A DNA stretch of 64,000 bases from the NCBI GenBank assembly GCA_947385945.1, contig CANDMY010000006.1, positions 1 to 64,000 on the forward strand, in the 5' to 3' direction. Within the stretch, counting starts at the first letter, position 1, and the number at the start of each line of letters is the position of its first letter. The position numbers and the translations under genes were made by a program. Below are positions 10,285-50,256 of this stretch, piece by piece. The notes under the pieces were generated by a model. The model saw nothing but the letters and a program-made list of their open reading frames with translations, did not search any database and was not told the origin of the DNA. This DNA comes from an uncultured Clostridia bacterium. GTDB lineage: Bacteria > Bacillota > Clostridia > Lachnospirales > Lachnospiraceae.

Positions 10285-10620
10285 TTATATCCATTTTATT
10301 ATCTGAAATGCAATTCCCAATCCTACAAGAATATGCAAAATAATAATGACCAGCCGGTTAAAAGAGCGAATCTGCCGAATCCGTTCAAAACGAATTTCTT
10401 CTTCTAGTATTTTATTCTCCAACAACTGGCTAAAATTATACGAAATATTTCTTTCTTCTTTTAATTCCTGTAAACCAATAGAAAGCATAAACATAATTTC
10501 TAGCTCTTCATAACAGTCCTCACAGGTTTGTACATGTTGAATAAAGCCTTCCATTTCTTGGTTTTCTAACGTATCATCTAAAAACCCGGGAATCATTCTC
10601 TGCCATTCTTTACATATCAT
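10285..10620 (-). CDS. Putative anti-sigma factor, zinc-finger (zf-HC2-like) with a C-terminal TM helix
   Basis: H-x3-C-x2-C motif 'HVQTCEDC' and a C-terminal hydrophobic segment. No cognate sigma factor is adjacent. Confidence 0.45.
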   Translation of the reverse strand: MICKEWQRMIPGFLDDTLENQEMEGFIQHVQTCEDCYEELEIMFMLSIGLQELKEERNISYNFSQLLENKILEEEIRFERIRQIRSFNRLVIIILHILVGLGIAFQIIKWI

Positions 10621-10728: not shown

Positions 10729-10977
10729 TGGGGGGAGGACGCCAGAGTATGGCATTGCAGTACTGTTTCGCTCTACAGAAAGTAAGAAGCTCTAAGACTT
10801 CTGAATTTAGATGCATCCAACCGGACGGACCGGGGTGCAATTCGCCCGTGCTGCGGGCTAAACACACCCCTTTTTTTGCCATTCAAGAATGGCAAAAAAT
10901 CCTCATGAATCGACAGAAGTCTAAAAGCTTCTAACTTTCCTCCGAAGTCACAGTACTGCAATGCCATACTCTGGCTG
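10729..10977 (-). repeat. F1 structured repeat, copy C (reverse orientation)
   Basis: Reverse complement carries the F1 core. Arms 'tatggcattgcagtact' and 'agtactgcaatgccata' are perfectly complementary. Confidence 0.85.
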
Positions 10978-11070
10978 TCTTTTTCCACAATATAGGTATT
11001 CTTTTTTCTCTTTTTTTGTTTTTTTAATCTATCAAGGAAGTAGCGGAGCGAATTCCGAATTTCCTTTGAC

Positions 11071-11113
11071 TTAATAAAATAAAAGGCAGTTATCTTATCT
11101 TTTGATAACTGCC
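11071..11113 (-). terminator. Intrinsic terminator downstream of tRNA-Leu: hairpin ggcagttatc-aaaagataag-gataactgcc plus a U-tract on the minus strand.
   Basis: Perfect 10-bp stem followed by 'ttttattttatt' on the minus strand. Confidence 0.6.
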
Positions 11114-14965: not shown

Positions 14966-15232
14966 CGCCAGAAAGAACCAGCTGGAGTTTGGAAGCCCTT
15001 TCTCTATGCAGTGACTTCGGAGAAAAGTTAGAAAGTCTTATGCCTCTGTCGATCTCCTAGGATTTTTGCCATCTTCTGATGGCAAAAAAGGGGTGTGTTT
15101 AGCCCGCTGCACGGGCGAATTGCACCCCGGTCCGTCCGGTTGGATATATTTTCATTCAGAGGCATAAGACTTTCTTACTTTTCGGAGAGCGGAACAGCAT
15201 AGAGAAAGGGCTTCCAAACTCCAGCGTCCTCT
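14966..15232 (+). repeat. F1 structured repeat, copy D
   Basis: F1 core with the variant 'gccatcttctgatggc' central hairpin. Its arms 'gtttggaagccctttctctatgca' and 'agcatagagaaagggcttccaaac' are complementary and related to the arms of copy B. Confidence 0.85.
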
Positions 15233-15360
15233 ACACCATCCCCCAGCTTTTCCATCCTAATATCCACACATCATCCCCCAACTTTCCCATCTCAATATCC
15301 ACACCATCCCCCCAACTTTCCCATCTCAGTATCCACACCATTCCCATTCCCCTCAACCTT
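15233..15360. repeat. C-rich tandem repeat of about three copies of a roughly 33-bp unit, 'catcccccaactttcccatctcaatatccacac', appended 3' of F1 copy D.
   Basis: Direct reading. Confidence 0.7.
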
Positions 15361-15372
15361 CACTTTTTTCTA

Positions 15373-16881
15373 TCAAGAAATCCCATACAACTTCTCATAC
15401 TTTTCCGTAAGATACCCCACAAAATAATCAGGATTAAATTCCTCCCCAGTAGCTTCCTTTAAAATCTCCCGTGCCTCCTTAAAAGCACCATACTGGTGCA
15501 CATACCGATGCAAAAACTCCCGTACAGCCCCAATATTTCCCTTAGAAAGCTCCGCCTCCACATCTATCTCACTCTTCATCTTAGCATAAATCTGAGCCGC
15601 AAAAGCATTTCCAAGTGCATAAGAAGGAAAATACCCAATATCCCCCATAGACCAATGTACATCCTGCAAAATCCCCACCGTATCATTCTCTGGTACCACT
15701 CCCAAATACTCCTGATACTTCTCCTTCCAAAGCCGAGGCAGTTCCTCCACCTCCACTTCCCCATTTATCATCAGCTTTTCCAACTCATATCGAACCATAA
15801 TATGCAGACAATACGTCAGCTCATCTGCCTCTGTTCGAATCTCATCTGCCCGAACCCGATTAATTGCCGCTACAAACTGATCCAAAGAAACCTCCCCCAA
15901 CTGTTCTGGAAACGTTTCTACTAACTTTCCATAAATAGGCACCCAAAAAGCCCGGCTCCTTCCAATCATATTTTCCATCAGCCGAGACTGTGACTCATGA
16001 ATCCCACAGGAAGCCCCTTCTCCCAACACGGTCTGCGTATACCGATCCGCAATCCCCTGTTCATAAATCGCATGTCCACTCTCATGAATTGTAGAAAAAA
16101 TTGCCCCTGCCAAATTATCCTCATAATAATGAGTCGTAATCCGCACATCATGATTATGCCAAGCCGTTGTAAAAGGATGTTCACTTTCCGCAATCACTCC
16201 ACGATTCAAATCAAATCCAATATACTCCGCCAAAAACCGATTAAACTCCTTCTGCTTCTCAATATCATACTTCTGATACAAAAAAGAATCCTCAATCTGC
16301 GGCTTCTTTTGAATCTTTCGAAGCAGCGGAAGAATCCCCGCCTTTAGCTTTTCAAAAAATACGTCTAACACTTCCACGGAAAAATCCTCTTCATAATCAT
16401 CTAAAAGCACATCATACCCGTTTAATTTCTCTGTCGCACCATAAGAAGCAAACTTTTTGCAGTATGCGATCACTTCCTTTAAATAAGGAGCAAAGATTGA
16501 AAAATCATTTTCTTTTTTTGCCCTCTGCCATGCCTTCTGCGACTTTGACTTCAGTTCCGCATAAGCCCGCTTCTCCTCCTTAGGAATTGCTTCTGTTTTT
16601 CTCAAATTTTTCTTTATTTTTCGAATAATCGCCTGCTCCGTCTCTTCCTGCTCCTTTGTCTCTTCTGTTTTAGACTCATAGTCCTCTAAAATCTTCTTTA
16701 CCTGCGGATTAGTCAGACACAGAAAATCCTCTTCCGATAAAATCCCGATTACCTTTGCCGTATACTCTCCTGCTTCCTTTGGTGCAAGAGTTGCATCGTC
16801 CCAATCTAATAGGGCAAGTGCTGTCTGTAAAGCCATATGTTTTTCCAAATAAGGCACTAACTGTTCAAAAAGCTGACTCAT
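15373..16881 (-). CDS. Carboxypeptidase Taq-like metallopeptidase (M32 family)
   Basis: About 500 aa with the HExxH motif 'HESGHAIYEQG'. The overall M32 pattern includes 'DVRITTHY' and a C-terminal 'GYL' region. Confidence 0.8.
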   Translation of the reverse strand: MSQLFEQLVPYLEKHMALQTALALLDWDDATLAPKEAGEYTAKVIGILSEEDFLCLTNPQVKKILEDYESKTEETKEQEETEQAIIRKIKKNLRKTEAIPKEEKRAYAELKSKSQKAWQRAKKENDFSIFAPYLKEVIAYCKKFASYGATEKLNGYDVLLDDYEEDFSVEVLDVFFEKLKAGILPLLRKIQKKPQIEDSFLYQKYDIEKQKEFNRFLAEYIGFDLNRGVIAESEHPFTTAWHNHDVRITTHYYEDNLAGAIFSTIHESGHAIYEQGIADRYTQTVLGEGASCGIHESQSRLMENMIGRSRAFWVPIYGKLVETFPEQLGEVSLDQFVAAINRVRADEIRTEADELTYCLHIMVRYELEKLMINGEVEVEELPRLWKEKYQEYLGVVPENDTVGILQDVHWSMGDIGYFPSYALGNAFAAQIYAKMKSEIDVEAELSKGNIGAVREFLHRYVHQYGAFKEAREILKEATGEEFNPDYFVGYLTEKYEKLYGIS

Positions 16882-17511: not shown

Positions 17512-20280
17512 TTAGGATTCTTCCTGATCGAGAGAATACCATGTCCGAAACAGCTTATCTGCTATCGCCGCCGCTTTTGTACTTCCTGCTCCTCCCTCTT
17601 CTACAATCACACTCACTGCAATCTCTGGTTCCTCTGCAGGAGCAAACCCTACAAACCAAGAATGTGCCTCTTTCTTTACATCCCACTCTGCCGTTCCGGT
17701 CTTTCCTGCCACGGTATAATCCTCCGATGCAGCACGGCTTCCGGTTCCTTCTTCAACACACAGCATCATCCATTCTGTCAGTCTCTCTGCTTCTTCCTGG
17801 CTAATTGGTTCTCTGTACTTTTTTGGTCTATATTTCTTTACAGTAAATCCATGTGCATCTGTTATCCGATCTACAAAATAAGGCTTCATCATTACTCCGT
17901 CATTGGCAATCGCTGCTGCTATCATCGCCTGATGAAGCGGCGTCATCTCTGCCGTTCCCTGTCCGATTGCCGTCTGCATCTTCTCCCAGTCAGGTGAATC
18001 CTGCTTCCATTCAAATTGACTCGATACATAAGATAGGGCAATCGGTAAATCCTGATTTAGTAAAAAACTCTCACAAAGATCCGTAAACCGCTCTGCTGAA
18101 AGCTTTGATGCAATACTGGCAAAAGCCCCATTGCAGGATTTCGCAAAAGCCGTTTCAAAGGAAATTGTTCCATGTGCTTTTTTATGATAACACTGAATAA
18201 CAGCCCCCTGATACTCATAGGAACCCTCACAAGTATAGGAAAAATCGGAAATTTCTTCTGGAAATTCTCTGGCATACTCCAATGCCGTTAAAATCTTAAA
18301 TGTAGAACCAGGCGGATAACGCCCCTGCGTAGCACGATTTAATAGATAACTCTGCTCGGTATCAGGATTTTCCGAAAGCGATTCCCAGATCTCTTCTATT
18401 TGATTGGGATTATAATCCGGTTTTGAAACCATTGCAAGCACCTTTCCAGTAGAAGGCTCCATCACTACTACAGCCCCCTTTTCCTCTCCCAATGCTTCCC
18501 AAGCCGCTTTCTGAAGCGGATAATTTAACGTGGTCACAACTTGATTTCCTTTTTCTTTCTCTCCCTTTACTTCAGCCGCTATCTTTTCATAAATCGGAGC
18601 ATCGGAAGTTAAAAGCTGAAAATTATAAATCTTTTCCAGTCCGTCCTTTCCACTCTGTGAATATCCAACCACATGAGAAAACAGATTGCCAAACGGATAC
18701 TCTCTTACCTCTGTCCCATCTGCTTCTATCTTTGTCTCTGCCAAAATCTCTCCGTCCGCTGACAGAATCGATCCCCGCACAACTTTTTTAGCAAACTCTT
18801 CCTGCCTCAGATTATAGGGATTATTTACAACTTCCTTACTCTCCGCTAAAAGAAAATATCCCAGATAACACGGCATCAAAATAAACAATCCGGTAAAAAG
18901 ATACATAACCAGATAGAATTCCCGATTGCTGTTTCTTTTTTTTATTTGTATTTCTAACTCTATACTCTGCCCACAATCTGCCCTTACATCTGAATTTACA
19001 TTTGCATTTGCATCAGAAATATACAGTCCCTGTATAATCCCATACATAATCAGGGAACTCAGCATCGAACTTCCCCCATAACTGACAAACGGAATCGTTA
19101 CTCCAGTAGAAGGAATTAACTTCATCGCCCCGCCAATCGTTAAAAATACTTGGATCCCATATTCACAGGCAAGCCCTAATGCCATATATCGATAAAAACG
19201 GTGATGCATCTGAATTGCTGCATTTAAAATTAGCAAAAGACAGCCCAAGCAGATAAAAATAACACAGATCGCTACTAATCCTCCCATCTCTTCTGCAATT
19301 GCCGAAAAGAAAAAATCTTCCTCTACAACCGGAATCTGTGAAGGAGAGCCCTTATTGAGTCCGACTCCTAACCATCCTCCCGTTCCGATTGCAAAAAGAG
19401 ATTGTGCTATCTGATACCCTTTGCTTTCAATTACAGACCATGGATCTAACCATGCAGTCACTCTGGTCTGAATATGAGAAAATAGCTGATATGCTGTATA
19501 GGAAGCCGCTGCCCCCGCCGCCAGTCCGCCAAACAGATAAATCGGCTTTTTTGTAGCGACATAGACCATAAATACAAAGACCAATGAAAAGATCAATGCA
19601 CTCCCTAAATCAGTTGAAGCAACCAAAATCAAGATATGTATTGCTGCTAAAATTCCTGTTTTTACTACCTGCTTCCAGTCATTTCTTACCTCAAACATAG
19701 CAGCAATAAAAAATACATAGCTGATTTTTACAAATTCGGACGGCTGAAAAGAAACACCCAGCAGTGCAATCGATAACTTTGCACCATAACTGGTCTCTGC
19801 CAAAATTAAAACAACCAAAAGCAGCAGTGCCCCGGCAATTCCATAGAGCCATGCAAATTTTCTCAATGCCTTCCACTTTTTCATAATATAGGGAATTACT
19901 GCCATAAAGACCGTACCCAATGCCAAGATTAAAAACTGCCGATTGGCCTTCCCTATCGAAAGTCTTGCCAGCATAATAAACCCTATCACCATTAACATGC
20001 AAACCAAACTGGTTAAAATCTGCGATCCCTCTGGATAAGCTGTATGGAATAACGTCTCCATTAAAATCAGATAAACTAACTCTGCCCCATATAAAAGAAT
20101 TAAATTTTCATTGCCTGTAGAAAGAAACAAGGATAAAAAACCTAAAAAATGAACAGAAAACAGACAAATATTTAACACCGCCAGCTTTCTTTTTCTATAA
20201 TAGGCAAAAGAATAATACGTATATACCATAATCAGCAGAATAATCAGATATTTTGAAAATTCCTCTATCAGATGAATCAT
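17512..20280 (-). CDS. Fused SEDS glycosyltransferase (FtsW/RodA family) and class B penicillin-binding protein transpeptidase (922 aa)
   Basis: N-terminal part (about 430 aa) is multi-TM with SEDS-like motifs. The C-terminal part has the PBP dimerisation and transpeptidase domain with SxxK 'STFK', SxN 'SCN' and 'KTGT' motifs. Confidence 0.75.
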   Translation of the reverse strand: MIHLIEEFSKYLIILLIMVYTYYSFAYYRKRKLAVLNICLFSVHFLGFLSLFLSTGNENLILLYGAELVYLILMETLFHTAYPEGSQILTSLVCMLMVIGFIMLARLSIGKANRQFLILALGTVFMAVIPYIMKKWKALRKFAWLYGIAGALLLLVVLILAETSYGAKLSIALLGVSFQPSEFVKISYVFFIAAMFEVRNDWKQVVKTGILAAIHILILVASTDLGSALIFSLVFVFMVYVATKKPIYLFGGLAAGAAASYTAYQLFSHIQTRVTAWLDPWSVIESKGYQIAQSLFAIGTGGWLGVGLNKGSPSQIPVVEEDFFFSAIAEEMGGLVAICVIFICLGCLLLILNAAIQMHHRFYRYMALGLACEYGIQVFLTIGGAMKLIPSTGVTIPFVSYGGSSMLSSLIMYGIIQGLYISDANANVNSDVRADCGQSIELEIQIKKRNSNREFYLVMYLFTGLFILMPCYLGYFLLAESKEVVNNPYNLRQEEFAKKVVRGSILSADGEILAETKIEADGTEVREYPFGNLFSHVVGYSQSGKDGLEKIYNFQLLTSDAPIYEKIAAEVKGEKEKGNQVVTTLNYPLQKAAWEALGEEKGAVVVMEPSTGKVLAMVSKPDYNPNQIEEIWESLSENPDTEQSYLLNRATQGRYPPGSTFKILTALEYAREFPEEISDFSYTCEGSYEYQGAVIQCYHKKAHGTISFETAFAKSCNGAFASIASKLSAERFTDLCESFLLNQDLPIALSYVSSQFEWKQDSPDWEKMQTAIGQGTAEMTPLHQAMIAAAIANDGVMMKPYFVDRITDAHGFTVKKYRPKKYREPISQEEAERLTEWMMLCVEEGTGSRAASEDYTVAGKTGTAEWDVKKEAHSWFVGFAPAEEPEIAVSVIVEEGGAGSTKAAAIADKLFRTWYSLDQEES

Positions 20281-24832: not shown

Positions 24833-25026
24833 TGTGGTTCTCCTTACCCATAGTGTTACAAACCTGCTTCGATTAATCGAACATATATACGATTGTAGCA
24901 GATTTTCTATTATCTGACAAGACCTTAATTCGAATCGATCGAATAGTAATCTGATTGTTTATAGTGAGCCAGAAAATTATTTATAGTGAGCCGAATGATT
25001 GTTTATGGCGATCCGGACGATTGCAT

Positions 25027-25150
25027 CTGCTGGTGAATCCCTGCTGGGGCCGTTTGCACTAAGGCTTCCTCGCAGCGGACACATAAGGCACGAAAGTACC
25101 GTGCCTAAGTGCCGGCGGGAAGCAATACCCCTGCAGGGATTCACCAGCAG
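25027..25150 (+). repeat. F2 structured repeat, copy 1. Core is 'tgctggggccgtttgcactaaggcttcctcgcagcggacacataaggcacgaaa..accgtgcctaagtgccggcgggaagcaatacccctgca', closed by the variable stem 'ctgctggtgaatccc/gggattcaccagcag'.
   Basis: Core repeated at 25785, 36195 and 36751(-). An internal hairpin 'aggcacg-aaa..ac-cgtgcct' is visible. Confidence 0.85.
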
Positions 25151-25192
25151 CTACAATCTGTCTATCTCAACGGAATGTTTGATAGAATCGCT

Positions 25193-25459: not shown

Positions 25460-25667
25460 GGATTTAATTTAACCTCCTAAATCTTTAAATTAAAAACATA
25501 TCGCCTATTTTATATAAAAATGCGGAGAGAAATCCATATTTTTCCTCTCCGATCTATTTACCATCTCTATTATAAAAGCAGCCTTAAAATTTTTCAACTA
25601 TATTTTATTATAAATATAATATTCCATGTAAAACATAGGAAAATTTTCACTAAAGCATAAAAATCAA

Positions 25668-25770
25668 AGGAAATTCGCAATCCGCTTCACTACTCGCTCA
25701 TAACCTCATAGCCACTATCGCAACTTTTCAATGAAAGTCTAAAGTCTGCACTTCCTTGATGAGGTTAAAA
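25668..25770 (+). repeat. F3 structured repeat, copy 2 (internally deleted)
   Basis: Shares F3 5' part 'ggaaattcgcaatccgct..ctcataacctcatagc..ctatcgca' and 3' end 'cttccttgatgaggttaaa'. Confidence 0.7.
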
Positions 25771-25784
25771 TAAGGTACAAAACA

Positions 25785-25923
25785 GCTCGCCCTAAGGGAT
25801 CTTTCTTTGCTGGGGCCGTTTGCACTAAGGCTTCCTCGCAGCGGACACATAAGGCACGAAAAGACCGTGCCTAAGTGCCGGCGGGAAGCAATACCCCTGC
25901 AAAGAAAGATCCCTTAGGGCGAG
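25785..25923 (+). repeat. F2 structured repeat, copy 2. Closing stem is 'gctcgccctaagggatctttcttt / aagaaagatcccttagggcgagc'.
   Basis: Identical core. A different, perfectly complementary closing stem. Confidence 0.85.
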
Positions 25924-26031
25924 CGTCAGGACTACCCAAAACAATTCTAAATCAAACAATCCCAAACCACTCCAAACAATCGAAACTCTACAATAAATGA
26001 AAAACTTAGTATAAAATATATTATACCTATT

Positions 26032-28443: not shown

Positions 28444-28663
28444 CCTTCTTACCTCTCACTCTATTCATAAAATTTACAAAAAATTCCCGTCCTGCTTTCC
28501 TCTCTTCTCCTAATATATCACGAAATCTGCATTTTCACAACCTGATTTTACATTTTCACAATGCAAATTTCCTTTTTCAACCTAACAATACCCATTCCCA
28601 AGCAGCTCCATCTCGCCTTTTATTCTTTTTATCAATAAAAATACAGGAAAAAACAGCCAGAGT

Positions 28664-28916
28664 TGGGAAGCGATTCTTTTTTGCTGTGACTTCGGAGAAA
28701 AGTTAGAACGTCTTATGCCTCTGTCGATCCACTAGGATTTTTTGCCATTTCCAAATGGCAAAAAAAGGCACGTGTTTAGCCTCCTGCAGAGGCGAATTGC
28801 GTGCCGATCCGTCCGGTTAGATGCACCTAAACTCAGAGGCATTAGCCGTTCTTACTTTTCGGAGAGCGGAACAGCAAAAAAGAATCGCTTCCAAACTCTA
28901 GCGTCCCCCTCCCCCC
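28664..28916 (+). repeat. F1 structured repeat, copy E (divergent core with compensatory changes)
   Basis: Core helix 'ggggtgtg..cgaattgcacccc' becomes 'ggcacgtg..cgaattgcgtgcc'. Helix 'gcccgctgcacgggc' becomes 'gcctcctgcagaggc'. Central hairpin 'gccattcccgaatggc' becomes 'gccatttccaaatggc'. Pairing is preserved in all three. Confidence 0.85.
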
Positions 28917-28941
28917 ATTTCCCTACAAAACCCCCATTTCC

Positions 28942-30456
28942 CTACAAAACCCCCGTATCACTATCCACCTCAAACCAAAATTCCACCCCATTTTCCAAAT
29001 TTCGAACCCCATATTCTTTATGATGAGCTTCCATAATTGCCTTTACAATCGACAGCCCAATCCCGCTCCCTCCATACTCTCTTGTCCGTGCCTTATCCAC
29101 CTTATAAAACTTAATCCAAACCTTCCCCAACTCCTCCTCTGGAATCGGATTCCCTGTATTAAAAACAGACACCCTTACCGTATGCTCATTTTTTGTCAAA
29201 GAAACAACGATCTGCTTCTCTCCGCCTGCATAGTGAATCGCATTACTAATATAATTCGTAACCACTTCCTCTAACTGATACTCATCTCCCCATACAAAAA
29301 CCGGCTCCCGCTGCTCGAATAAAACCGTAATCTTGTCCTGCCTGCATAAAATTTCAACCGACTGAATCACACCCAAAATCAATGCCGTCAAATCAAACCG
29401 CTCCATCGTAATCTGTTCCTGTCCAAATTCTAACTGATTTAAAGTCAGCAGTTTCTTTACCATTTTATTCATTTTATCTGCTTCATCTATAATTACTTCA
29501 CAGTAAAACTCCCTGCTTTCTGCATCCTCATTAATCCCTTCTGCAAGCCCCTCCGCATATCCCTGAATCAATGCAATCGGCGTTTTTAATTCATGAGATA
29601 CATTCGATAAAAATTCCTTCCTTATCTCCTCCATCTGAATCTTCTGCTCAATATCCTTTTGCAGTTCATTATTTGCCGACTTTAATTCAGAAATCGTATG
29701 CTCTAACTTTTTGGAAAGTTCATTCATACTCTGCCCTAACACACCGATTTCATCTTTATCGTGCCGCTCATACTTTGCCTCAAAATCTAAATTAGACATT
29801 TTCCCCGATAATTCTGCCAATTCCAACAAAGGTCTAGTCAAACGCCTAGTAATCGTAATCGAAATCATAATAGCTAAAATACTGACAATTCCTCCCACAT
29901 AGGCAACAAAACGATTGGAAATCTCTACACTTTCCTTTATACTTTCCACCGGAATACGAAGCAGCATATATTCTCTGGTATTAGGCTCCACCCCGAATAA
30001 TTCCAAAAAATTAGTCGAATAGCGACTATCTTTATTTCGAAAAATACTATAATCCTCTTCCCTTTTTAAAGTCACCGCACTATTCTCAATTCCAAATAAA
30101 TAAGGCATTACCAAATCCTGCAGGGTCTGTACATTGTGCACATTATAATAGACTGGTTTTAACATTCCTGTATTGGCATCCAAAATAATAAATGTAATAT
30201 TGGATTTTTGGCACAACCCCTCTAACTCCAATGCTACCTCATCCGCCTTTTTATTACTCTGTACCAATTCACACATACTCACATAAGCATTTTCCAATTT
30301 TGTCTGTTTACTAATTAAATAATAATCTTCTAAAAATCGATTATTAATCAATAAAAGCAAAAAAACTGTACCAAAAGTCGCAAATAACATTAATGCTATT
30401 ATTTTGGTTCGAATAGAATATTGTATTTTCCCTACTAAACCTGCTATTTTACTCAT
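28942..30456 (-). CDS. Sensor histidine kinase (TM, HAMP, HisKA, HATPase_c)
   Basis: H-box 'SHELKTP'. N, G1 and G2 boxes 'GGSGIGLSIVKAI'. Two TM helices flank an extracytoplasmic domain. Confidence 0.85.
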   Translation of the reverse strand: MSKIAGLVGKIQYSIRTKIIALMLFATFGTVFLLLLINNRFLEDYYLISKQTKLENAYVSMCELVQSNKKADEVALELEGLCQKSNITFIILDANTGMLKPVYYNVHNVQTLQDLVMPYLFGIENSAVTLKREEDYSIFRNKDSRYSTNFLELFGVEPNTREYMLLRIPVESIKESVEISNRFVAYVGGIVSILAIMISITITRRLTRPLLELAELSGKMSNLDFEAKYERHDKDEIGVLGQSMNELSKKLEHTISELKSANNELQKDIEQKIQMEEIRKEFLSNVSHELKTPIALIQGYAEGLAEGINEDAESREFYCEVIIDEADKMNKMVKKLLTLNQLEFGQEQITMERFDLTALILGVIQSVEILCRQDKITVLFEQREPVFVWGDEYQLEEVVTNYISNAIHYAGGEKQIVVSLTKNEHTVRVSVFNTGNPIPEEELGKVWIKFYKVDKARTREYGGSGIGLSIVKAIMEAHHKEYGVRNLENGVEFWFEVDSDTGVL

Positions 30457-31248: not shown

Positions 31249-31863
31249 TTAATTTTGTGAATCTTTCCCGAAAAGTTCCTTTTCTTTTGCCTTTAATTCT
31301 TTTTCCCTTTCTTTTAATTCTGCTTCTTTCTGCTGTAAATCTTTTTCCCATGATATATATTTATTAATCAGTGTATTCTCATAATTTAATATATTGACAT
31401 GATTACTATTTAGTGTAATATAAGCCATAATCAATATAGCAGCAATCAACAAAATATTTAAAATAAGGGCATGATAATATTTCTGCCGATAATAAAGACT
31501 TGTATTTTTTTTATTTTTCTGAGCAATTCGTTCTTCTTTTTCCGCTCTGTCCCTCTCTCTTACCCGCAGCCACTGTTCATCCTCTAACTGAAATCCATAT
31601 ATTCTCTGATTCTCGATCTCTTTTGCCTCTAACAACCGCTCTTTCCATTCCCTTAAAAATTTTGTCCCAACTTCTGTTTTCAATATATTGCGTTCTGCCA
31701 ATTTATTATATACAGCAAGTGCAACCTCCATATTTTCCATATCATTTTGCGACAAAATATACTGTATCCCTTCCCACTCTTTTTTTGCCTTTTTCGCTTC
31801 CACCGGATCTCTGTAAGTAATCCCGTAAATGGTTTCTCCTTTAGCCATACCGCTTTTCTCCAT
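31249..31863 (-). CDS. Hypothetical membrane protein (single TM, coiled-coil C-terminus)
   Basis: ORF with a central hydrophobic helix 'ALILNILLIAAILIMAYITL'. No recognised domain. Confidence 0.5.
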   Translation of the reverse strand: MEKSGMAKGETIYGITYRDPVEAKKAKKEWEGIQYILSQNDMENMEVALAVYNKLAERNILKTEVGTKFLREWKERLLEAKEIENQRIYGFQLEDEQWLRVRERDRAEKEERIAQKNKKNTSLYYRQKYYHALILNILLIAAILIMAYITLNSNHVNILNYENTLINKYISWEKDLQQKEAELKEREKELKAKEKELFGKDSQN

Positions 31864-31873
31864 TTCTTTTAGT

Positions 31874-32036
31874 CAAAGGAAATAAGGAAATTCGGAATCT
31901 GCTCCTTCCTCATAATCCTATGCTGCTATCGCTGCTTGTCAGATGGAACTTGCCCCCAACTGACACAAGGAAGTCCCCCAACCCACCGCTTTCGCCTTCA
32001 CGGCTTAGAAGCAGAGGACCTCCTTGATAGGTTAAA
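31874..32036 (+). repeat. F3 structured repeat, copy 3 (diverged)
   Basis: Shares F3 hairpins 'gctgctatcgctgc' and 'aagtccccc..', and the 3' end 'ccttgataggttaaaa'. Confidence 0.75.
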
Positions 32037-32085
32037 AAACACAAAAGCCCCGGATCTCTCCGGGACTTACTCTGCCGCAAAATCA

Positions 32086-32547
32086 TTAAAAATCAACACG
32101 TCCTGCATTTTTGCCGTTGATCACATAATATACAGCGGCTTCTTCTGGCTTAATATAAATATCTAACTTTTTAATCGATCCGGCACGATGTCCTTCTGAT
32201 TCCCAAGCCTTCTTTACTCTATCTTCAATATCTACTATATTGACTTCTTTATTTGCATATTGAATATAAATCTGTTTTTCCTGACCGTTCTCTTTCTTAA
32301 CAGCTTCCTTCTTTGCAGCCCCTCTTTTCCCTGCTGCTTCTGTTTCTTTCTTTGCTGTTCCTCTCTTTGCCCTTGGTTTTCTCTGCTTTAGAACGGATGT
32401 CTCTCCGTCATTTTCCATAAACAACTCATCCAAAGAAGCCTCTTCCAATTTTGCTTCTGCCGGCTTACTTTCCACTGCTTCCGGCATCACTGCTGATTGA
32501 GTCTTTTCTGCGATTTCATTTTCTGTTCCTTTTTTCCTTCTTGGCAT
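32086..32547 (-). CDS. Hypothetical protein (Lys/Ala/Glu-rich N-terminus, conserved C-terminal about 60 aa)
   Basis: ORF with an RBS-compatible start. No recognised domain. Confidence 0.45.
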   Translation of the reverse strand: MPRRKKGTENEIAEKTQSAVMPEAVESKPAEAKLEEASLDELFMENDGETSVLKQRKPRAKRGTAKKETEAAGKRGAAKKEAVKKENGQEKQIYIQYANKEVNIVDIEDRVKKAWESEGHRAGSIKKLDIYIKPEEAAVYYVINGKNAGRVDF

Positions 32548-32982: not shown

Positions 32983-33056
32983 TCGAGGTGACGTGATTCG
33001 AACACGCGACTTCTACGTCCCGAACGTAGCGCTCTACCAAACTGAGCCACACCTCG
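32983..33056 (-). tRNA. tRNA-Pro (anticodon CGG)
   Basis: Hand fold: acceptor CGAGGTG/CACCTCG, D-arm GCTC-AGTTTGGTA-GAGC, anticodon arm CTACG-TTCGGGA-CGTAG, T-arm GCGTG-TTCGAAT-CACGT, 74 nt. Confidence 0.8.
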
Positions 33057-33082
33057 AACATAACACGGTTACGTTTAACCGA

Positions 33083-33444
33083 TGGAGCTGAGGGGAATCG
33101 AACCCCTGTCCGAAGACTCCTCCATCAAAGCATCTCCCACCACAGTCCCTGTTTTATGCATAGCCTTTTTCTATACGGTTCCCTCTATCGGACACCCATG
33201 GACAGGTTTCCGGCTTTAGTAGCTTCATTTTTCTTTTATACCCTCAAAGCTTTGGATACAAAGTTCCTTACCTCCTTGATGCCGGATTCTTAAGCAGTAA
33301 GCTACCTAAGAGCGACAGCTGCTATTAAGCAGCGAACGCGTAATCTTCGTTTGCGTTTATATTTAATTTTCGGTTTACTAATGCGGTTCCGACCCGCAGG
33401 TGGCTTCTCCAACTTCATAATCCCCGTCGAAACCAGTACAACCC
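33083..33444 (-). ncRNA. ssrA: tmRNA (ssrA) with tag reading frame ANEDYAFAA** (+ coordinates 33325..33354)
   Basis: 5' end 'GGGGTTGTACTGGTTTCGACGGGGATT' and 3' tRNA-like end 'GGACAGGGGTTCGATTCCCCTCAGCTCCA' with a G3:U70 pair. Internal 'gca aac gaa gat tac gcg ttc gct gct taa tag'. About 362 nt. CCA is not encoded. Confidence 0.9.
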
Positions 33445-33700
33445 CGAATTTTTCAATTCTTTCAGTTGAATGGTTCTTACAGAACAATAGTTATTATACT
33501 GATAAAATAATCATTCGTCAAGTATTTTTTTTTATTTTTTAAAAAAAGTCCGATAAAACAAAAAACCTCTTTCCTGCTTTAACTGCCCTTTTCCTCCCAA
33601 TACTTATGTACGCAAAAAAAGACTGCTGCAAAACAATAAATAGTATTATGATTGCCCCTATATTCTGTAAAATTACTATATTTTGCAGCAGCCCCTTTTT

Positions 33701-35829: not shown

Positions 35830-36051
35830 TCAACTATTCTCCTGAGATGCTTTTTCCTCTTGTGCTTTCTTTTTTCGATTCCGTGTCCCAAGAATTCCGC
35901 CGATACGTCCGGTTTCCCGTGCAGAAAGCGTTCCCCATCCCCCTTTCAGCACTTTATCTAACACCCCAATTTCCTCTGCAATTTCTAATTTCATCTCATC
36001 CTCTGGTGTTAAATTCTCTAAATCAATTTCTTTCTTTTTCTTAGTCGGCAT
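35830..36051 (-). CDS. Small acid-soluble spore protein, alpha/beta type
   Basis: 'MKLEIAEEIGV' and 'ARETGRIGGILGTR' match the conserved SASP blocks (KYEIAQEFGV; ANGSVGGEITKR). A GGAGGAG RBS precedes the ATG at 36051. Confidence 0.7.
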   Translation of the reverse strand: MPTKKKKEIDLENLTPEDEMKLEIAEEIGVLDKVLKGGWGTLSARETGRIGGILGTRNRKKKAQEEKASQENS

Positions 36052-36194
36052 TACTCTCTCCTCCAATACTCTAATTTTACCAAGAGTATTTCCCTAATTT
36101 TCAAGGCTTATTCAATTTCTAAAGAAAAGTTATCAGAAAAAAGGAAAACCACTTCAGCAATTATAAACCAGATATTGGTATTGTAGAACCGGAC

Positions 36195-36334
36195 GCAGGT
36201 AGCATAGAGAGATTCTTTGCTGGGGCCGTTTGCACTAAGGCTTCCTCGCAGCGGACACATAAGGCACGAAAAGACCGTGCCTAAGTGCCGGCGGGAAGCA
36301 ATACCCCTGCAAAGAATCTCTCTATGCTACCCGC
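36195..36334 (+). repeat. F2 structured repeat, copy 3. Closing stem is 'gcaggtagcatagagagattcttt / aaagaatctctctatgctacccgc'.
   Basis: Identical F2 core. Confidence 0.85.
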
Positions 36335-36336
36335 TG

Positions 36337-36545
36337 TTTCGTTCCCCCTAGAAATAATGCCTCATAAACATTTTTATTCTACCTGTTGGTTTATTCCTCC
36401 TGGAAACAATACCTCACAAACATTTTTACTCTGCCTATTAACTTGTTCCTCCTGGAAATGATACTTCACAAAAATATTTTATTCGGTCTGCTGGTTTATT
36501 CCTCCTAAAAACAACGCCCCGTAAAAATTCTCTACTCCGACTGTT
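36337..36545. repeat. Tandem repeat of about 3.5 copies of a roughly 60-bp unit ('...ttattcctcctggaaacaatacctcacaaacatttttactctgcctgttgg...')
   Basis: Direct reading. Degenerate periodicity of about 59-62 bp. Confidence 0.75.
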
Positions 36546-36546
36546 G

Positions 36547-36678
36547 GAATTCAAAAGAAATTTGTAATCCTATGCTGCTATCGCAGCTTGTCAAATAGGG
36601 CTTGTACCCCACCTGCCCCCAACCCACCGCTTTCGCCTTGGCGGCTTAGAAGCGGGGGACTTCCTTGATGAGGTTAAA
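36547..36678 (+). repeat. F3 structured repeat, copy 4
   Basis: Contains 'gctgctatcgcagc' and 'cgccttggcggcttagaagcgggggacttccttgatgaggttaaa'. Confidence 0.8.
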
Positions 36679-36750
36679 CTATCTAAAATCACACAAAAAC
36701 GGTTTTAATCAACCAAAATACTGCGACTGTTCCGGTTGGAATATACAGCT

Positions 36751-36884
36751 GACACCACTGGATGAATCTCTGCAGGGGTATTGCTTCCCGCCGGCACTTA
36801 GGCACGGTCTTTTCGTGCCTTATGTGTCCGCTGCGAGGAAGCCTTAGTGCAAACGGCCCCAGCAGAGATTCATCCAGTGGTGTC
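36751..36884 (-). repeat. F2 structured repeat, copy 4 (inverted relative to copy 3). It is followed by a twice-repeated 'gatgtcagcgtccccccaaca'.
   Basis: Reverse complement of the F2 core. Closing stem 'gacaccactggatgaatctct / agagattcatccagtggtgtc'. Confidence 0.85.
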
Positions 36885-36962
36885 AGCGTCCCCCCAACAG
36901 AAAATCACCCAATGATGTCAGCGTCCCCCCAACATATATTCGTTTAAATTCAAATCATTCGC

Positions 36963-39900
36963 TTAAATTCGAATCTCTTTCCCCAATCCAAAAGAATACA
37001 ATATCATCTCCCCAACTTCCTCCCCTGTCATCTGCTCCAATGCCATTTTATAAAGTTCAAACTGCCTCTCATACCGCATCACCAGCACTTCCTCCTGCCC
37101 TTCATAAACTGCATCTGTCTTATAATCCAACAGTACCAACTTCCCCTCCTCTTCAAAATAAACATCAATCACCCCCTGCAGTAAAATTAACTCCTGACTC
37201 TCTGTCTCCCGATATAACTTCCAAGCAGGAATCCCCACTACAAACTGCGTCTCCCGATAAATCTGCCCTCTCTTTTCTGCTTCCCGCATCCGCTTTGCCG
37301 TCTGAGAGGTTAAAAACGCCACAATCCTCTGATTCCAAATCAACTTAGCATTTTCTTTTGAAAGTTTCTTTTCCTCCACTAACTGCCGCTTTAACTGCCC
37401 GATTCGTTTTGAAATCTCGTTCTCTTCCATTCCATCAAATTCTGCTAAATTCATATTTTCCAAAAAAATATGATAGGCGGTTCCTCGTGTTGCTCCTCCC
37501 ACACCTTCTAATTTTCCCTGCATAAATTTCGGCAGAATCTCTTCTTTTTGTTCGATTAATAATGCCGTATCTTCTTCTGCTTCCATTTCTCTTTGATTCA
37601 AACGTTTCTGCTCCGATACGGAAGTTTTTGCATAAAGTGACATTTCTTTCTGATAAGGATACAGATAAGAAAACCTCTTTTCTATCTCTTCTCTTAACTG
37701 AGGATCAAAACATTGCGAAAAATCCAGTTTCTTCTGATAATCGGATAAATCCATATTTTCTTTCTGCCGCAGAATCTCTCCCTCTGCAACTCCCTTTGGT
37801 GTATAAAATGTAACTTCACAACTTTCTTTTGTGATCGCCGGTACAATCCAATCCAGATAGGACTCCGCTTTTGCAAGGGAAGCATAGGACAATGCCGCTC
37901 CTCCGTTTGTTTCTCTCCGCCACTTTTCATATCGTTCTGTCATCTTATCTGTTACACCGGTTAAAATCAGCTTTTCTTTTGCCCTTGTCAGTGCTACATA
38001 TAAAATCCGCAGTTCTTCTCCAAGGTTTTCTAAACGAATACTTTTTTGAATAATTCGCTTGATTAAAACAGGAGCTTTCGTTCTGCGTTCATAATTTACA
38101 AAATCTAATCCCACTCCTAAGTCGGGATGAATCACTGCTTTCTGCATAGCATCCATTTGATTAATCTTTTTTCCCATTCCGGCTACAATAACAATCGGAA
38201 ATTCCAGTCCTTTGCTCTTATGGATACTCATAATCCGAACGGTGTTGTCCTGTTCATTTACAATCGATGCTTCTCCGAAGTCCACCTCATATTGGTTGAG
38301 TTTTTCAATATAGCGGATAAAGTGAAAGACACCCCGATAACTGGTTGCTTCAAAGGCAATCGCTTTTTCTAACAGCATATCTAAATTCATTCTTCGTTTT
38401 GTTCCTGCCGGCATGGAAGCGGCATAATCTCCATAACCTGTTACTTTTAAGACTAATCGTATTAATTCATGAATAGGGGTACATGCTGCTTGATCCCGGA
38501 AATATTCTAACTGTTCTAAAAATGCTTTTACTTTTTTATCTAGTTCTTCTTCTTCAACTGGAGAAAGCAGTGCTTCATAGAGATCTCCCTCTAGATGAGC
38601 CGAACGGATCTTTGCCAGTTCTAAGCTGCTGAAATGTCCAATCGGCGAGTGCAGAACCCCTGCTAATGGAATGTCCTGTCTGGGATTGTCAATAATTCTT
38701 AATAGGTTTAATACCGTCTGTACTTCCAAGGCGGTAAAATATCCGGTCTGGGACTGGGTATGGGCAGGAATTCCTTCTTCCATGCAGATCGTTACAATCG
38801 TCTCTCCCCATCCTGCTACTGTACGCAAAAGGACAACAATATCCCTGTACTGTGCAGTCCGATAGGTACCCGACTTTTTGTCTAGAACTTTCAGACCGGT
38901 ATCTGGATGGGTCAGTCTTCGAATCTGACCGGCTATTACCTTTGCTTCCATTACCAGGGCTGTCATTTCTGCCGTTACCAGATCGGTGGTATCCTCTTCT
39001 TGGGATTTATTGATCAGCAGTAACTCGGTCTTTCGCTCCTGTGCTTCTGAACCGCCTTCTGGAAATGCTGCTCCCGGATAGAGTGCTGCTGCGTTGTCAT
39101 AGGTTACGCCTCCTAATTCTTTCCGCATAATCTGATAAAAGATATCATTTACGCTCTGTAAGACCTCTGGACGGCTGCGGAAGTTTTTATGGAGATCAAT
39201 TTTTTGATAATTGCTTTCTTCTGTGGTATATGTCTGATATTTTTCCACAAAAAGCTCGGGTCTTGCTAAACGAAACTTATAGATGCTTTGTTTTACATCT
39301 CCTACCATAAAGACATTGGGAATTTCTTCCTGATAGCGGGAAACGCTAAATAAAATTGCTTCCTGTACTAAATTGCTGTCCTGATATTCATCGATCATAA
39401 TCTCTGTAAACTGATCCCGATATTCTTTTGCAATCAGTGACGGCACTCTTCCCTCTTTTGTCTGTTCGGTCAGGATATTAAGTGCCAAATGTTCTACATC
39501 CGAAAAATCCATTAAATTGCGTTCCCTTTTTTTTGCCTGATATCTGGTATGAAAGTCTAATGTCAGCCTTACCATTACCGCCATAGTCTTGCTTACATTT
39601 GCCATATTTTCCAGCATCTTATCGATTGGCTGAAAATAGAACTGCTTTCCGATTCCCCGAATTTCCTCTTTGATTCGATCTCGAATCTCTTTGACTCTTG
39701 CCTTTTTTTCAGCATCGATCGAGGAATCTTTTTTTGAGGATAAGCGGATAAAATTTACTTCTTTTAAAGCCTTTCCAAAACTTTGATAGGATTTACACTG
39801 CACCAATTTTTCTAAATAATAGAAATCTGACTCAATAGCTGGAAGATACTGATAGGGACCTCTCTCCTGGCTGCAGATCTGTTTTGCCAGATCCAACTGT

Positions 39901-44227: not shown

Positions 44228-44470
44228 GGAAATAACGCCAGAGTACTTGAAAGGGAACTGTTCCGCTCTCCGAAAAGCAGAAGCTCTAAGACTTCTGAAT
44301 CTAGGCATATCCAACCGGACGGATCGGGGTGCAATTCGCCCGTACAGCGGGCTAAACACACCCCTTTTTTTGCCATTCGAGAATGGCAAAAAATCCTAGT
44401 GGATTGACAGAAGTCTAAGAGCTTCTAACTTTCCTCCGAAGTCACAGTTCCCTTTCAAGTACTCTGGCTG
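44228..44470 (-). repeat. F1 structured repeat, copy F (reverse orientation)
   Basis: Reverse complement carries the F1 core. Arms 'tacttgaaagggaact' and 'agttccctttcaagta' are complementary. Confidence 0.85.
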
Positions 44471-44965
44471 TATTGTCTCACAATCTACTTTTTTTCTCTT
44501 TGCTCCATTATATTCTTATTCTTTTTTGTTAAATTTCCTTCTTTCTTTTTTTATTAAAAATAATTTTAGAATTTTTGCATTGGTCAAAGCGGATTGCGAA
44601 TATCCGATTTGACTATCCCTATCAGACATTTCTCTATATCAGCCGTAATCATTTTATGCTTGTATTTTACACACCAAACAATATGATATTGGATGGAATA
44701 TACCTATCCACGTCCATGAGTCACTTCCATATAGAATCACCTCGTTATACAAACGATAATAGATGTATGTTGTTATATCAATTATTTTTAGCATTATTAC
44801 TTGAAATTTAATTAACATATGTGAGCAATTCATCCCACGACTAAATGCTCATGTACGGTAAAGAAACAAGAAACCGAAAACAAGAGATAGACCTCCAGCA
44901 CCACACTATTCCGAACCAAAGACCAAAAGACAAGCATGATGGAATCCCTCTCTCATTCCTTTATG

Positions 44966-46412: not shown

Positions 46413-46961
46413 ATGCCCTGCACAGAAGCATACAGAAAACACATCATGTATACGTTCAATAGCTATTGCAAGACCGTTATACGCTTTGCGGCTATTAACG
46501 CATGGCGTGACAGGAGCAGACGGCGGCAAAAGGAAATATCCCTTGAATACCTCACAGAAGAAAAGTTTTACCCTTTAGGCACAACAGACGAATATTTTGA
46601 AGCACCCTATAAAGAATACCCCGTTACGATATGCGGTCAAACTTGTATTGCGGGAGCTGCCGCCAGCTTCAAAGACCGTAACGAATATATCTCCCGCCTT
46701 TGCAGCTTCCCCTTGCTTATCCTTGATGATTTCGGCATGGAGCGTGGCACGGAATACGGCTTAGAGCAAATCTATAACGTGGTTGACAGCCGATACCGCA
46801 GCGGCAAGCCGTTAATCGTGACAACGAACCTCACGCTGGAAGAATTGCAGAACCCGGAGGACACCGCCCACGCCCGCATTTATGACCGCCTTACAGAAAT
46901 GTGCTGCCCCGTCTGCATTACCGGGGAGAATTTCAGAAAAACCAAAGCACAGGCGGACTAA
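46413..46961 (+). pseudogene. Mobile-element relic: IstB/DnaC-like ATPase C-terminal fragment fused to an unrelated N-terminal stretch
   Basis: 'PLLILDDFGMERGTEYGLEQIYNVVDSRYRSGKPLIVTTNLTLEEL' is the Walker B and sensor region of IstB/DnaC helper ATPases. No Walker A is present. The locus is GC-rich. Confidence 0.55.
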
Positions 46962-49183: not shown

Positions 49184-49563
49184 AAAAAACTCCTTTCCAA
49201 ACAAAAAAACACTAAACATACAATATGTCCAGTGCACTTCTAAAACCATCGGCTATTGCAAATATAATTACAACTTACACCTACTAATTTATATGCACAG
49301 ACATATCAGACCTACCTGCGTAACTGTGCATCCAATCAAAAACACAATTACTTCTAAGTACGTCTGTCATACATGTACATATCATTCATTGTAAAATGTA
49401 AGTTCTGCATTTTCACGTTCTCCTAAACTTTTTTAATAACTTACCATAATTCTATTTATATGTCAAGAAATATTTCTGAAACGAACCATATAACTTTATT
49501 TTTGATTTTAAAATATATATCATTCATTCCATATCAACCCCAAACCAACAGTCAAATCGGATA

Positions 49564-49716
49564 TTCGCAATCCGCTTTGCTACTTGCTCATAACCTCATA
49601 GCTTCTATCGCAGCTTTTCAGTGGGAGTCTGCACTCCCACTGAAACAAAGAAGTCCCAACCCACCGCTTTCGCCTTGGCGGTTTAGAAGCGGGGGACTTC
49701 CTTGATGAGGTTAAAC
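49564..49716 (+). repeat. F3 structured repeat, copy 5 (near-identical to copy 1)
   Basis: 'aatcggatattcgcaatccgctttgctacttgctcataacctcatagc...cttgatgaggttaaa'. Confidence 0.85.
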
Positions 49717-49946: not shown

Positions 49947-49999
49947 CAAAAAACTCTACAGATGAATGAATCAACTCTAACCTTACAGGCAGGAAAAGA

Positions 50000-50256
50000 C
50001 AGCCAGAGTGGGAAAGCCATTTCTTCCCGCTGTGACTTCGGAGGAAAGTTAGAATGTCTTATGCTTCTGTCGATCCACTAGGATTTTTTGCCATTCTCGA
50101 ATGGCAAAAAAAGGGGTGTGTTTAGCCCGCAGCACGGGCGAATTGCACCCCGGTCCGTCCGGCTGGATGCACCTATCCCCAGAAGCATTAGACATTCTTA
50201 CTTTCCGCAGAGCGGAACAGCGGGAAGAAATGGCTTTCCCACTCTAGCGTCCTCCC
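50000..50256 (+). repeat. F1 structured repeat, copy G
   Basis: F1 core. Arms 'tgggaaagccatttcttcccgct' and 'agcgggaagaaatggctttccca' are complementary. Confidence 0.85.

Follow-up and report, generated by a model that had tools for sequence, protein, structure and literature searches.

F2, a lineage-restricted family of large intergenic palindromic repeats with a nearly invariant core and variable yet complementary arms in Lachnospiraceae

We analysed a 64,000-nt stretch of DNA from an uncultured Clostridia bacterium of the Lachnospiraceae (assembly GCA_947385945.1, contig CANDMY010000006.1, positions 1 to 64,000, forward strand; hereafter the window), in which a reading of the sequence alone had picked out four copies, here c1 to c4, of a structured repeat termed F2. 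All four were present at the positions claimed, the core and the four stem pairs being legible in the sequence as quoted, and a 40-nt core probe matched exactly four times (plus strand, 25043, 25809 and 36219; minus strand, 36824-36863; chance expectation 0). Every window copy forms a single long hairpin (z -10 to -12.5 versus shuffles) and, like all F2 copies, is intergenic. Copy c1 lies between the stop codon (25193) of a gene for an 88-aa protein and the promoter-like site of ruvA (24920-24892), tail-to-tail with c2, which lies ~100 nt past the GerA stop codon (26032). The head of c3 adjoins the promoter-like site (36187-36160, minus strand) of a SASP gene (35830-36066), and c4, tail-to-tail with c3, is in sense orientation 70 nt past the stop codon of an AddA-like gene for a 1226-aa protein (36963-40643). 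The latter was identified from its Pfam domains as an AddA-type UvrD-helicase/PD-(D/E)XK nuclease, which ruled out rpoC and rpoB as the identities of this gene and of its neighbour for a 1156-aa protein; the neighbour is called AddB-like by position only. As documented below, F2 is a genuine, previously undescribed repeat family, real and robust, and restricted to one lineage.

The repeat unit, first put at about 125 nt, is actually ~170 nt long, with a conserved head and tail outside both arms. Thirty-five full copies could be aligned with zero gaps, and in all of them the same parts follow one another: a conserved, unpaired head (CCGGACGC) outside the 5' arm; a stem arm of 23 bp, constant in length in all 35 aligned copies and free in sequence, with a semi-conserved inner end (RATTCTYT); a nearly invariant core of 92 nt (GCTGGGG...CCCCTGCA), itself a bulged hairpin; the 3' arm; and, outside it, a conserved tail (GCTGTNTATTCCAACCRGAAC) that is T-rich (GCTGTNTATTCC...). 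The outer stem is 26-31 bp and the complete hairpin ~140 nt. The core, described as invariant with an internal hairpin, is indeed nearly constant, with a pairwise difference of 1.4% (0.014) outside the probe and the apical stem, but the apical hairpin varies, with compensation; columns 55-74 of the middle helix were fixed by the search probe and columns 101-126 were not. A subfamily, F2b, found in both species that carry the family (see below), has another lower core (ATTCCGGGCCCGCTCTCGCTTAGAATTTCC...GGGAAATATGACCCT; L004 4132-4313 and L025 3622-3805, where L numbers denote loci), with compensated substitutions in helix 2 (G56-C115 to A-T, C57-G114 to T-A).

F2 had been taken to be independent of F1, another structured repeat of the window. 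This does not hold, because both have the head GGACGC and the tail GCTGTNT(T/A)TTCC in common, and the covariance model built on the 35-copy gapless F2 alignment also picks up F1. The layout of F1 is GGACGC-TAGAGT-(variable 18 nt)-core of ~190 nt-(complement)-ACTCTGGCTGTTTTTTCC, and a search for head-arm...arm-tail frames returned only two size classes, with 124-nt and 219-232-nt spacing. The motif CGGAC recurs in the F2 head, core (GCGGACAC) and tail (CCGGAAC), at model columns 6-10, 68-72 and ~164-168, and occurs twice in F1, with CCGGACGGAC in the F1 core; it may be a repeated protein-recognition site.

Pairing was examined with RNAalifold, which gave 54 pairs in three helices. Standard pairs account for 97.6% of cells (35 copies) versus 82.8% in shuffles, double-sided changes occur in 29 of the 54 pairs, and the covariation score is 0.398; shuffled alignments reach 0.119, and sliding the partners by 1-3 columns leaves no more than 0.087. 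Covarying pairs make up 24 of 30 in the outer stem and five of seven in the 7-bp apical stem; the middle helix is invariant, with bulges at U62, A66-G67 and A71 and a T.T mismatch at columns 37/124. The closing stems, held to be perfect, are complementary and in many copies near-perfect, but not always perfect: counted over 43 copies, the 26-bp outer helix contains no non-Watson-Crick cell in six copies, one in 23 and two in eight. A T.T at columns 29/132 is found in metagenome assemblies of the same loci (L038, L039, L043-L046), with window copies c1 (25037) and c3 (36316) perfect at this position; it may come from k-mer collapse beside the repeated core in metagenome assembly, in which case the real copies would be even nearer to perfect than counted, or may be a real polymorphism.

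The mismatches in the outer stem are of uneven kind. On the GGACGC-bearing strand (alignment columns 12-36/125-149) there are 32 C.A or A.C versus 5 G.T or T.G among 1050 cells, and the excess of C.A over G.U holds for copies both sense and antisense to neighbouring genes. In F1, on the same strand, the first arm position is a conserved T.G, the opposite of the F2 asymmetry; the wobble asymmetry gave no strand assignment (32 C.A versus 5 G.T in F2, a conserved T.G in F1). Because wobble pairs should be harmless in a 26-bp stem and yet G.U is rare, RNA-level selection on the sense strand does not explain the pattern, and selection acting solely at the RNA level on the transcribed strand is doubtful.

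The covariance model found ~57 F2 copies in 311 kb, including diverged copies and F2b. A scan with a core 20-mer over one genome per species (185,579 species) placed the family, among the matches listed, in two genomes: the mouse-gut Lachnospiraceae metagenome-assembled genome (MAG) MGBC128194, which at ~98-99% identity is conspecific with the window, and another Lachnospiraceae MAG, CBFFYP01, of a sister species. Two further matches of this 20-mer, in GC-rich genomes, were set aside as chance. A second core 20-mer had no matches among viral contigs, and its three matches among JGI metagenome contigs were judged to be chance because the covariance model does not match them. The Rfam comparison suggested at the outset was run and revealed no known RNA family for F2: Rfam 15 at gathering thresholds reported only a transfer-messenger RNA (tmRNA) and two tRNAs in the whole window, and a permissive local E-value scan of F2 gave a best E of 1.5. 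Many F2 copies lie at contig ends, and F elements break metagenome assemblies.

The copies are placed and oriented non-uniformly with respect to genes. Twenty-four of the 43 full copies are in sense orientation after a stop codon, mostly at 11-122 nt (outliers -23, 305 and 529), and in these the stop codon is followed directly by a G-rich spacer, with no promoter upstream of the head. All unpaired copies with complete context are sense (11/11, at 11-112 nt past the stop codon; p ~0.0005 versus random orientation), the four apparent exceptions among unpaired copies being accounted for by a contig end or a decayed partner. The 13-14 F2 pairs, with c3/c4 counted and c1/c2 included by head and tail, are tail-to-tail in every case, and are separated by 92-650 nt of unrelated sequence that at times holds an ordinary small gene. 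Heads that face a gene start usually lie just upstream of that gene's promoter-like site. Read forward, F2 continues from the stem into TGTNTATT and F1 into TGTTTTTTCC, and at least five T in the 8 nt after the stem were found in 27 of 43 copies in the forward direction and in none of 43 in reverse.

A canonical terminator before a sense F1 or F2 was found in none of the six window genes concerned, and good canonical terminators follow the window genes without an F element (2304-4742 and 32086-32547) and the tRNAs. The first of these genes (minus strand) encodes an 812-aa protein with eukaryote-type Major Vault Protein shoulder and repeat domains and SPFH/Band 7, and has a strong terminator at 2277-2248; a tmRNA (tag ANEDYAFAA) lies immediately upstream of tRNA-Pro(CGG) (32983-33445, minus strand), and the two share one classic terminator (32973-32951). 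Sister species were reached via homologues of the 88-aa protein encoded between c1 and c2 (78% and 69% identical). In them, gene order is kept, intergenic regions are short, and F1/F2 are absent at four orthologous positions; classic terminators follow the GerA and M32 peptidase genes, neither of which has one in the window. The site orthologous to the F1 copy at 28646..28910 (L057) has no element, and at L058, the site orthologous to F1 14971..15233, a classic terminator (19924-19976) follows the M32 peptidase gene. The stem of this last terminator (GGAATCTTTGT/ACAAAGATTCC) is similar to the inner F2 arm consensus (GAATCTTTG...CAAAGATTC). This likeness, the only hint of terminator-derived arms, is probably a coincidence of composition.

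The claim of a nearly invariant core (1.4%) between highly variable (45%) yet complementary arms was borne out, though hypervariable overstates the case: pairwise difference between F2 copies is 0.45 in the arms, 0.48 in the unpaired tail, 0.014 in the core and ~0.68 in random flanks, and arms thus resemble the tail in divergence and differ less than flanks do, hence they are related by descent. They look free in sequence, constrained in pairing and without special mutability. Arm distance is uncorrelated with tail distance (r = 0.09) and with apical distance (r = -0.03), and so the parts of the element have different histories. The orthologues L016 and L017, one from each species, are 91.8% identical across 4.7 kb; between them 4 of 23 arm positions differ, all compensated, compared with 4 of 92 in the core and ~15% in flanking intergenic DNA, so that arms change at about the flank rate. 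Moreover, next to c4 a solitary second copy of its head and 5' arm (36892-36926) departs at 7 of 25 positions from the arm in use, which still pairs perfectly; since this solo arm has diverged while the paired c4 arms stay perfect, complementarity is actively maintained. The core consensus is identical in both species despite moved arms and flanks, which indicates purifying selection on the core. As for arms serving as guides or addresses, no matches to them were found outside the elements in 363 kb.

Copy c2 is peculiar in that its 92-nt core (25809-25900) is in plus orientation, inverted with respect to its own head and tail. The core is canonical in five other assemblies (L002, L042, L043, L044 and L046), and the inverted 140-nt segment is 100% identical to that of L042, reversed. 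Comparison of pair partners with random pairs gave arm differences of 0.463 versus 0.465, with tails likewise no closer, and formation of the pairs by inverted duplication was discarded for that reason. Partners are closer in the apical/core region (0.118 versus 0.187, permutation p ~0.012), and a rare apical variant, GGCGTT/AACGCC, is present in both L036 partners and in no other copy. These observations point to gene conversion that is limited to the core and stopped at either end by the unrelated arms.

Signs of mobility were looked for in several ways. That the closing stems might be target-site duplications of an ordinary insertion was dispelled: they are inverted, constant in length and inside conserved termini, and there is no flanking duplication. 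Direct repeats of 3-8 bp, sought in 36 copies for all boundary combinations, were not found, the only element common to head and tail being an internal CGGA. The proposed comparison with empty sites, made for c1/c2 in sister species, succeeded in showing the elements to be absent, but the intergenic DNA is too diverged to fix boundaries; an apparently empty site at L017 keeps a 15-nt head/arm remnant, and a deletion between GTTTTT repeats accounts for it better. Enzymes were searched for using Pfam on 28 open reading frames of the window and loci and tblastn with an IS200 TnpA query, and the only match was a 25-aa IS200-like TnpA fragment, joined to a third repeat family, F3, rather than to F1/F2. 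No larger element with an F1/F2 head and tail was present in the DNA sampled. We also considered tail-to-tail pairs as composite transposons and rejected this, as spacers are unrelated and genes inside are ordinary (GNAT, ScpB, SASP and the conserved 88-aa protein), with no transposase.

F3 (...GGAAATTCGCAATCCGCT...GGAAGTCCCCC..GGGGGACTTCCTTGATGAGGTTAAA) often adjoins F1/F2 tails. In L035 its terminal hairpin directly follows the TnpA pseudogene fragment (NMKYKYGN*HFWCRGYYAD; 6733-6807), and F3 is on this account probably derived from the end of an IS200/IS605 element; its left part has a weak, partial and non-significant match to the Rfam family Clostridiales-1 (E = 0.42). Truncated mobile-element genes also occur in the window, one for the C-terminal part of an IstB (IS21 helper) and one for a large serine recombinase without its catalytic N-terminus, both inside a small plus-strand island at ~44.5-50.4 kb. 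Tandem repeats of 23-66 nt start inside or beside F1 or F2 heads and tails; similar arrays exist outside the window (L024, L021, L008 and L004, tail-initiated, and L012). Those on the head side are bounded by G-runs (GGGG before the head, GGGG at the start of the core), and the arrays suggest slippage at replication stalled beside the hairpin. Coordinates are collected in Table 1.

Table 1. Coordinates of F2, F1 and F3 copies and of associated features in the window (limits of F1 copies are approximate; CM, covariance model).
Feature	Position	Strand	Evidence and remarks
F2 c1, whole unit	25013..25183	+	CM match 25009-25191, 191.6 bits; sequence; fold
F2 c1, parts	head CCGGACGA 25013-25020; 5' arm 25020-25042; core 25043-25134; 3' arm 25135-25157		
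F2 c1, stem base and T-rich tail	25158-25183	+	
F2 c2	25760..25930	-	head 25923-25930 and tail 25760-25785, both on minus strand
F2 c3	36189..36359	+	CM 198.8 bits
F2 c3, parts	head 36189-36196; 5' arm 36196-36218; core 36219-36310; 3' arm 36311-36333; tail 36334-36359		
F2 c4	36723..36893	-	CM 203.1 bits
F2 c4, parts	head 36886-36893; 5' arm 36864-36886; core 36772-36863; 3' arm 36749-36771; tail 36723-36748		
Solo duplicate of head and 5' arm of c4 (35-nt tandem unit)	36892..36926	-	repeat family D13 and direct reading
Four tandem 53-nt repeats starting in c3 tail	36320..36529	+	repeat family D8
F1	187..451	-	sense, ~27 nt past stop of 479-1972; I20; tail GGCTG..TCC
F1	4824..5085	-	sense, ~55 nt past stop of 5140-6927; I17; tail GGCTGTTTTTTCC
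F1	10733..10985	+	head towards start of minus-strand gene 10285-10620
F1	14971..15233	-	sense, after M32 peptidase gene 15373-16881; I18
F1	28646..28910	-	sense, ~31 nt past stop of histidine-kinase gene (28942-30456); I24
F1	44232..44480	+	degenerate head AATAACGC, towards start of AddB-like gene 40634-44104; D7, I3
F1	49992..50256	-	I19; head, then three 23-nt tandem repeats of head and arm start (50247-50320)
F3	2028-2189, 25659-25767, 31857-32038, 36565-36679, 49549-49716, 49841-49904	+	
F3	11035-11078, 44585-44614	-	also L035 6733-6880
Tandem repeats at F elements	1-198, 15240-15342, 28911-28960, 36320-36529, 36857-36926, 50247-50320		
IstB fragment	46413-46961	+	among minus-strand housekeeping genes
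Serine recombinase fragment	47651-48319	+	among minus-strand housekeeping genes

We hold it very probable that F2 is a dispersed palindromic repeat of the same general kind as repetitive extragenic palindromic (REP) sequences and bacterial interspersed mosaic elements (BIMEs). F2 and F1 would together be a lineage-specific, high-copy intergenic palindrome of this kind, ~five times the size of a REP. Co-transcribed with the upstream gene, the F2 hairpin and its U-rich tail would serve as that gene's 3'-end or terminator hairpin, replacing the canonical intrinsic terminator that sister species carry at the same sites. The arms, whose pairing is observed, would drift approximately neutrally, each mutation being either removed or copied onto the other arm. 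The most likely agent would be intra-strand template switching or gene conversion between the arms, a process that also inverts spacers (compare c2): template switching between inverted repeats homogenises their arms and inverts spacers (PMC8604942), and creates and maintains RNA hairpins (PMC8794818). Selection on structure probably also acts, and selection for a stable hairpin would add to arm matching. The core would be held by purifying selection, presumably as a putative binding site for a protein, be it a host factor or a mobilising enzyme, and gene conversion among nearby copies would help to keep it constant. The family would have spread in the common ancestor of the two species, leaving no target-site duplication. 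Taken whole, with a 3'-end or terminator role, templated correction as the main force that keeps the arms matched, and selection for a partner preserving the core, this account seems to us evenly balanced between standing and falling.

A number of observations weigh against one or another part of it. The case for termination is circumstantial, drawn as it is from position, tail composition and the missing other terminators. Seventeen of the 43 copies point head-on to a divergent gene start and cannot terminate that gene; the U-tract of F2 is interrupted (UGUNUAUU), with 16 of 43 copies falling short of five T in 8 nt; and a hairpin of ~140 nt far exceeds known intrinsic terminators. The bias among mismatches sits better with pairing that is checked in the DNA or on the other strand than with a function of the sense RNA. 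With regard to templated correction, the c2 inversion was seen in a single assembly, the window itself, and compensation extends to the 7-bp apical stem and, when F2 is compared with F2b, to helix 2, covariation that selection on structure explains as easily as template switching does. As to the spread of the family, the sites compared included no clean empty site, neither the window nor ~0.4 Mb of loci contained a mobilising enzyme, and five assemblies at ~98-99% identity showed no presence/absence polymorphism within the species.

Compensation in several helices would also be expected if F2 were primarily a structured RNA, either a multi-copy cis element or a protein-bound small RNA, under ordinary compensatory selection at the RNA level and with no DNA templating. 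Covariation extends over the outer, the apical and (between subfamilies) the second helix, the conserved bulges (U62, A66-G67 and A71) and the T.T mismatch hint at a particular three-dimensional fold or a site for a protein, and the core consensus is the same in two species although the arms changed. We nevertheless find this explanation unlikely, given that F2 has no Rfam match, that it occurs in both orientations to local transcription (24 sense versus 17 gene-start-facing), that G.U is limited to 5 of 1050 sense-strand cells in a stem long enough to tolerate it, that sense heads have no promoter upstream and directly follow stop codons and G-rich spacers, and that copies have decayed or been deleted at some loci. 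Equally unlikely in our view, a structure-specific enzyme (HUH/Y1, such as RAYT or an IS200-like TnpA, or another) would mobilise F2 and F1, as non-autonomous elements, in the form of single-stranded DNA hairpins; it would read head, tail and core, transposition would be limited to units with an intact core, and the arms would diversify during copying or shortly afterwards. Orthologous copies persist between the species, arms look related by descent (0.45 versus 0.68 in flanks) and not made afresh, orientation in the window is not tied to one replication strand, and insertion polymorphism, an intact transposase and a larger element with the same head and tail are all missing from the assemblies and loci sampled; the IS200-like TnpA pseudogene fragment, although in the same genome (L035 6733-6807), is joined to F3. 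What speaks for such mobility is the high copy number limited to one lineage, the absence from four orthologous sites in sister species, the lack of target-site duplication, the unpaired conserved head and tail and extrahelical bases, as in the substrates of REP/RAYT and IS200/IS605 systems, and the use of one head/tail frame with two different cores. A bolder reading, in which F1 and F2 are two cartridges of one undescribed modular system with a shared head-stem-tail frame and interchangeable putative protein-binding cores, copied as single-stranded DNA hairpins by a structure-specific enzyme, having taken over transcription termination and insulation genome-wide in one Lachnospiraceae lineage and with the stem as a self-address, appears less likely again; if it were true, the fixed-length, copy-specific stem would force self-folding over pairing with dozens of other copies.

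Two other explanations have much lower probability. The stems could be host sequence, if a mobile core had entered, at their loops, hairpins that were already there, intrinsic terminators for instance; copies do lie where terminators are expected and canonical ones are missing there, and the L058 terminator stem (GGAATCTTTGT/ACAAAGATTCC) resembles the inner arm consensus. Yet arm length is identical in 35/35 aligned copies, conserved head and tail lie outside the arms, arm sequences are mutually related, the terminator stems that sister species have at the c2 and F1 sites bear no relation to the present arms, and no core-less head/tail hairpins exist in the window, all of which renders this origin very improbable. 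The least likely explanation, by a little, is that F2 copies are programmed invertible switches (invertons) flipped by a recombinase to change expression. Inverted repeats around ~80-90 nt are what inverton finders detect, and c2 is inverted between strains; but F2 is not such a switch, because one of ~57 copies is flipped and the repeats differ in every copy, leaving no site for a sequence-specific recombinase. In addition, the GC-rich core has no promoter-like site and there is no adjacent recombinase gene, the sole recombinase-like open reading frame in the window being a fragment 10 kb away.

If the account built on a REP/BIME-like palindrome is true, giant REP-like hairpins have come to occupy most of the larger intergenic regions in one lineage of gut Lachnospiraceae, and a repeat family has been taking over a basic gene-boundary function where relatives carry ordinary terminators. 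The nearly invariant bulged core points to a binding partner. The dozens of paired paralogous hairpins, with stems 45% diverged, amount to a natural experiment, together with orthologues from the other species and a single captured inversion, and this material could separate selection through intermediates from one-step template switching in the compensatory evolution of hairpins. F elements would be miscalled invertons by tools that rely on inverted repeats.

Compared with known systems, F2 shares with integron attC sites the form of an imperfect palindrome of similar size, and attC is recognised as a folded single strand through its structure and extrahelical bases and not its sequence. In attC, however, it is the centre that varies, while remaining self-complementary, whereas in F2 the centre is conserved and the stem variable, and F2 copies are dispersed, in inverted pairs and without an integrase, as opposed to the arrays of like-oriented cassettes beside intI; attC core sites (RYYYAAC/GTTRRRY) were not visible at F2 ends in the alignment. 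Palindromic elements derived from IS200/IS605 have subterminal hairpins at both ends, make no duplication and insert 3' of a fixed tetranucleotide; F2 has a single hairpin and no duplication, and its alignment contained no fixed flanking tetranucleotide. An intrinsic terminator has in common with F2 a GC-closed stem followed by a T-rich tract, in sense orientation 11-120 nt past a stop codon, but consists of a stem of 5-15 bp and a loop of 3-8 nt in contrast to the ~140-nt bulged hairpin and interrupted U-tract of F2.

Bacterial MITEs (miniature inverted-repeat transposable elements) of similar kind include bcr1 of the Bacillus cereus group. The Correia repeat-enclosed elements of Neisseria (PMC2649163) and the RUP and BOX elements of pneumococcus (PMC3049150) are, like F2, intergenic, 100-170 bp long and built of inverted-repeat arms around a conserved core, and MITEs can be co-transcribed with their neighbours, the long RNA hairpins being possible RNase III substrates that affect expression (PMC2649163; PMC3049150). 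MITEs, however, have conserved terminal inverted repeats and a target-site duplication (TA for Correia), while F2 arms are 45% different and lie inside the termini; F2 is not an ordinary MITE, because it has neither conserved terminal repeats nor a duplication. Template-switch (quasipalindrome) mutagenesis between inverted repeats resembles the behaviour of F2 in making arms complementary via apparently simultaneous double changes and in occasional spacer inversion (PMC8604942; PMC8794818). It is, on the other hand, a mutational process, is not known to maintain dispersed copies of one element by the dozen, and leaves the invariant core unexplained.

REPs and BIMEs stand closest in general kind. 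As given in the part of a REP survey (Di Nocera et al. 2013, PMC3733652) used here, REPs measure 20-40 bp, with a stem of 8-9 bp and a loop of 4-5 nt, in contrast to the ~170 nt and structured 92-nt core of F2, and are marked by a GTAG/CGTC tag in place of the F2 head CCGGACGC; the GACG in that head is the reverse complement of CGTC, but on the CGTC strand it lies 3' of the hairpin, the wrong side. The hosts which that part of the survey names are gamma- and alpha-Proteobacteria, Cyanobacteria and Planctomycetes, whereas F2 is hosted by Lachnospiraceae (Firmicutes), and neither the window nor ~0.4 Mb of loci yielded a RAYT (Y1 transposase) gene flanked by F2. The survey describes REPs as having an unpaired head tag and a short tail, as forming heterodimers as well as dimers joined tail-to-tail across variable spacers, as occurring singly in cases that can be what is left of a dimer, and as taking a position near the 3' end of the upstream open reading frame with a variable distance to the next one; roles proposed there include termination and mRNA stabilisation (PMC3733652). 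In these respects F2 is alike: its copies are high-copy extragenic palindromes with copy-specific paired stems and no target-site duplication, are intergenic near the 3' end of the upstream gene, and form inverted tail-to-tail pairs with variable spacers and partners with unrelated arms.

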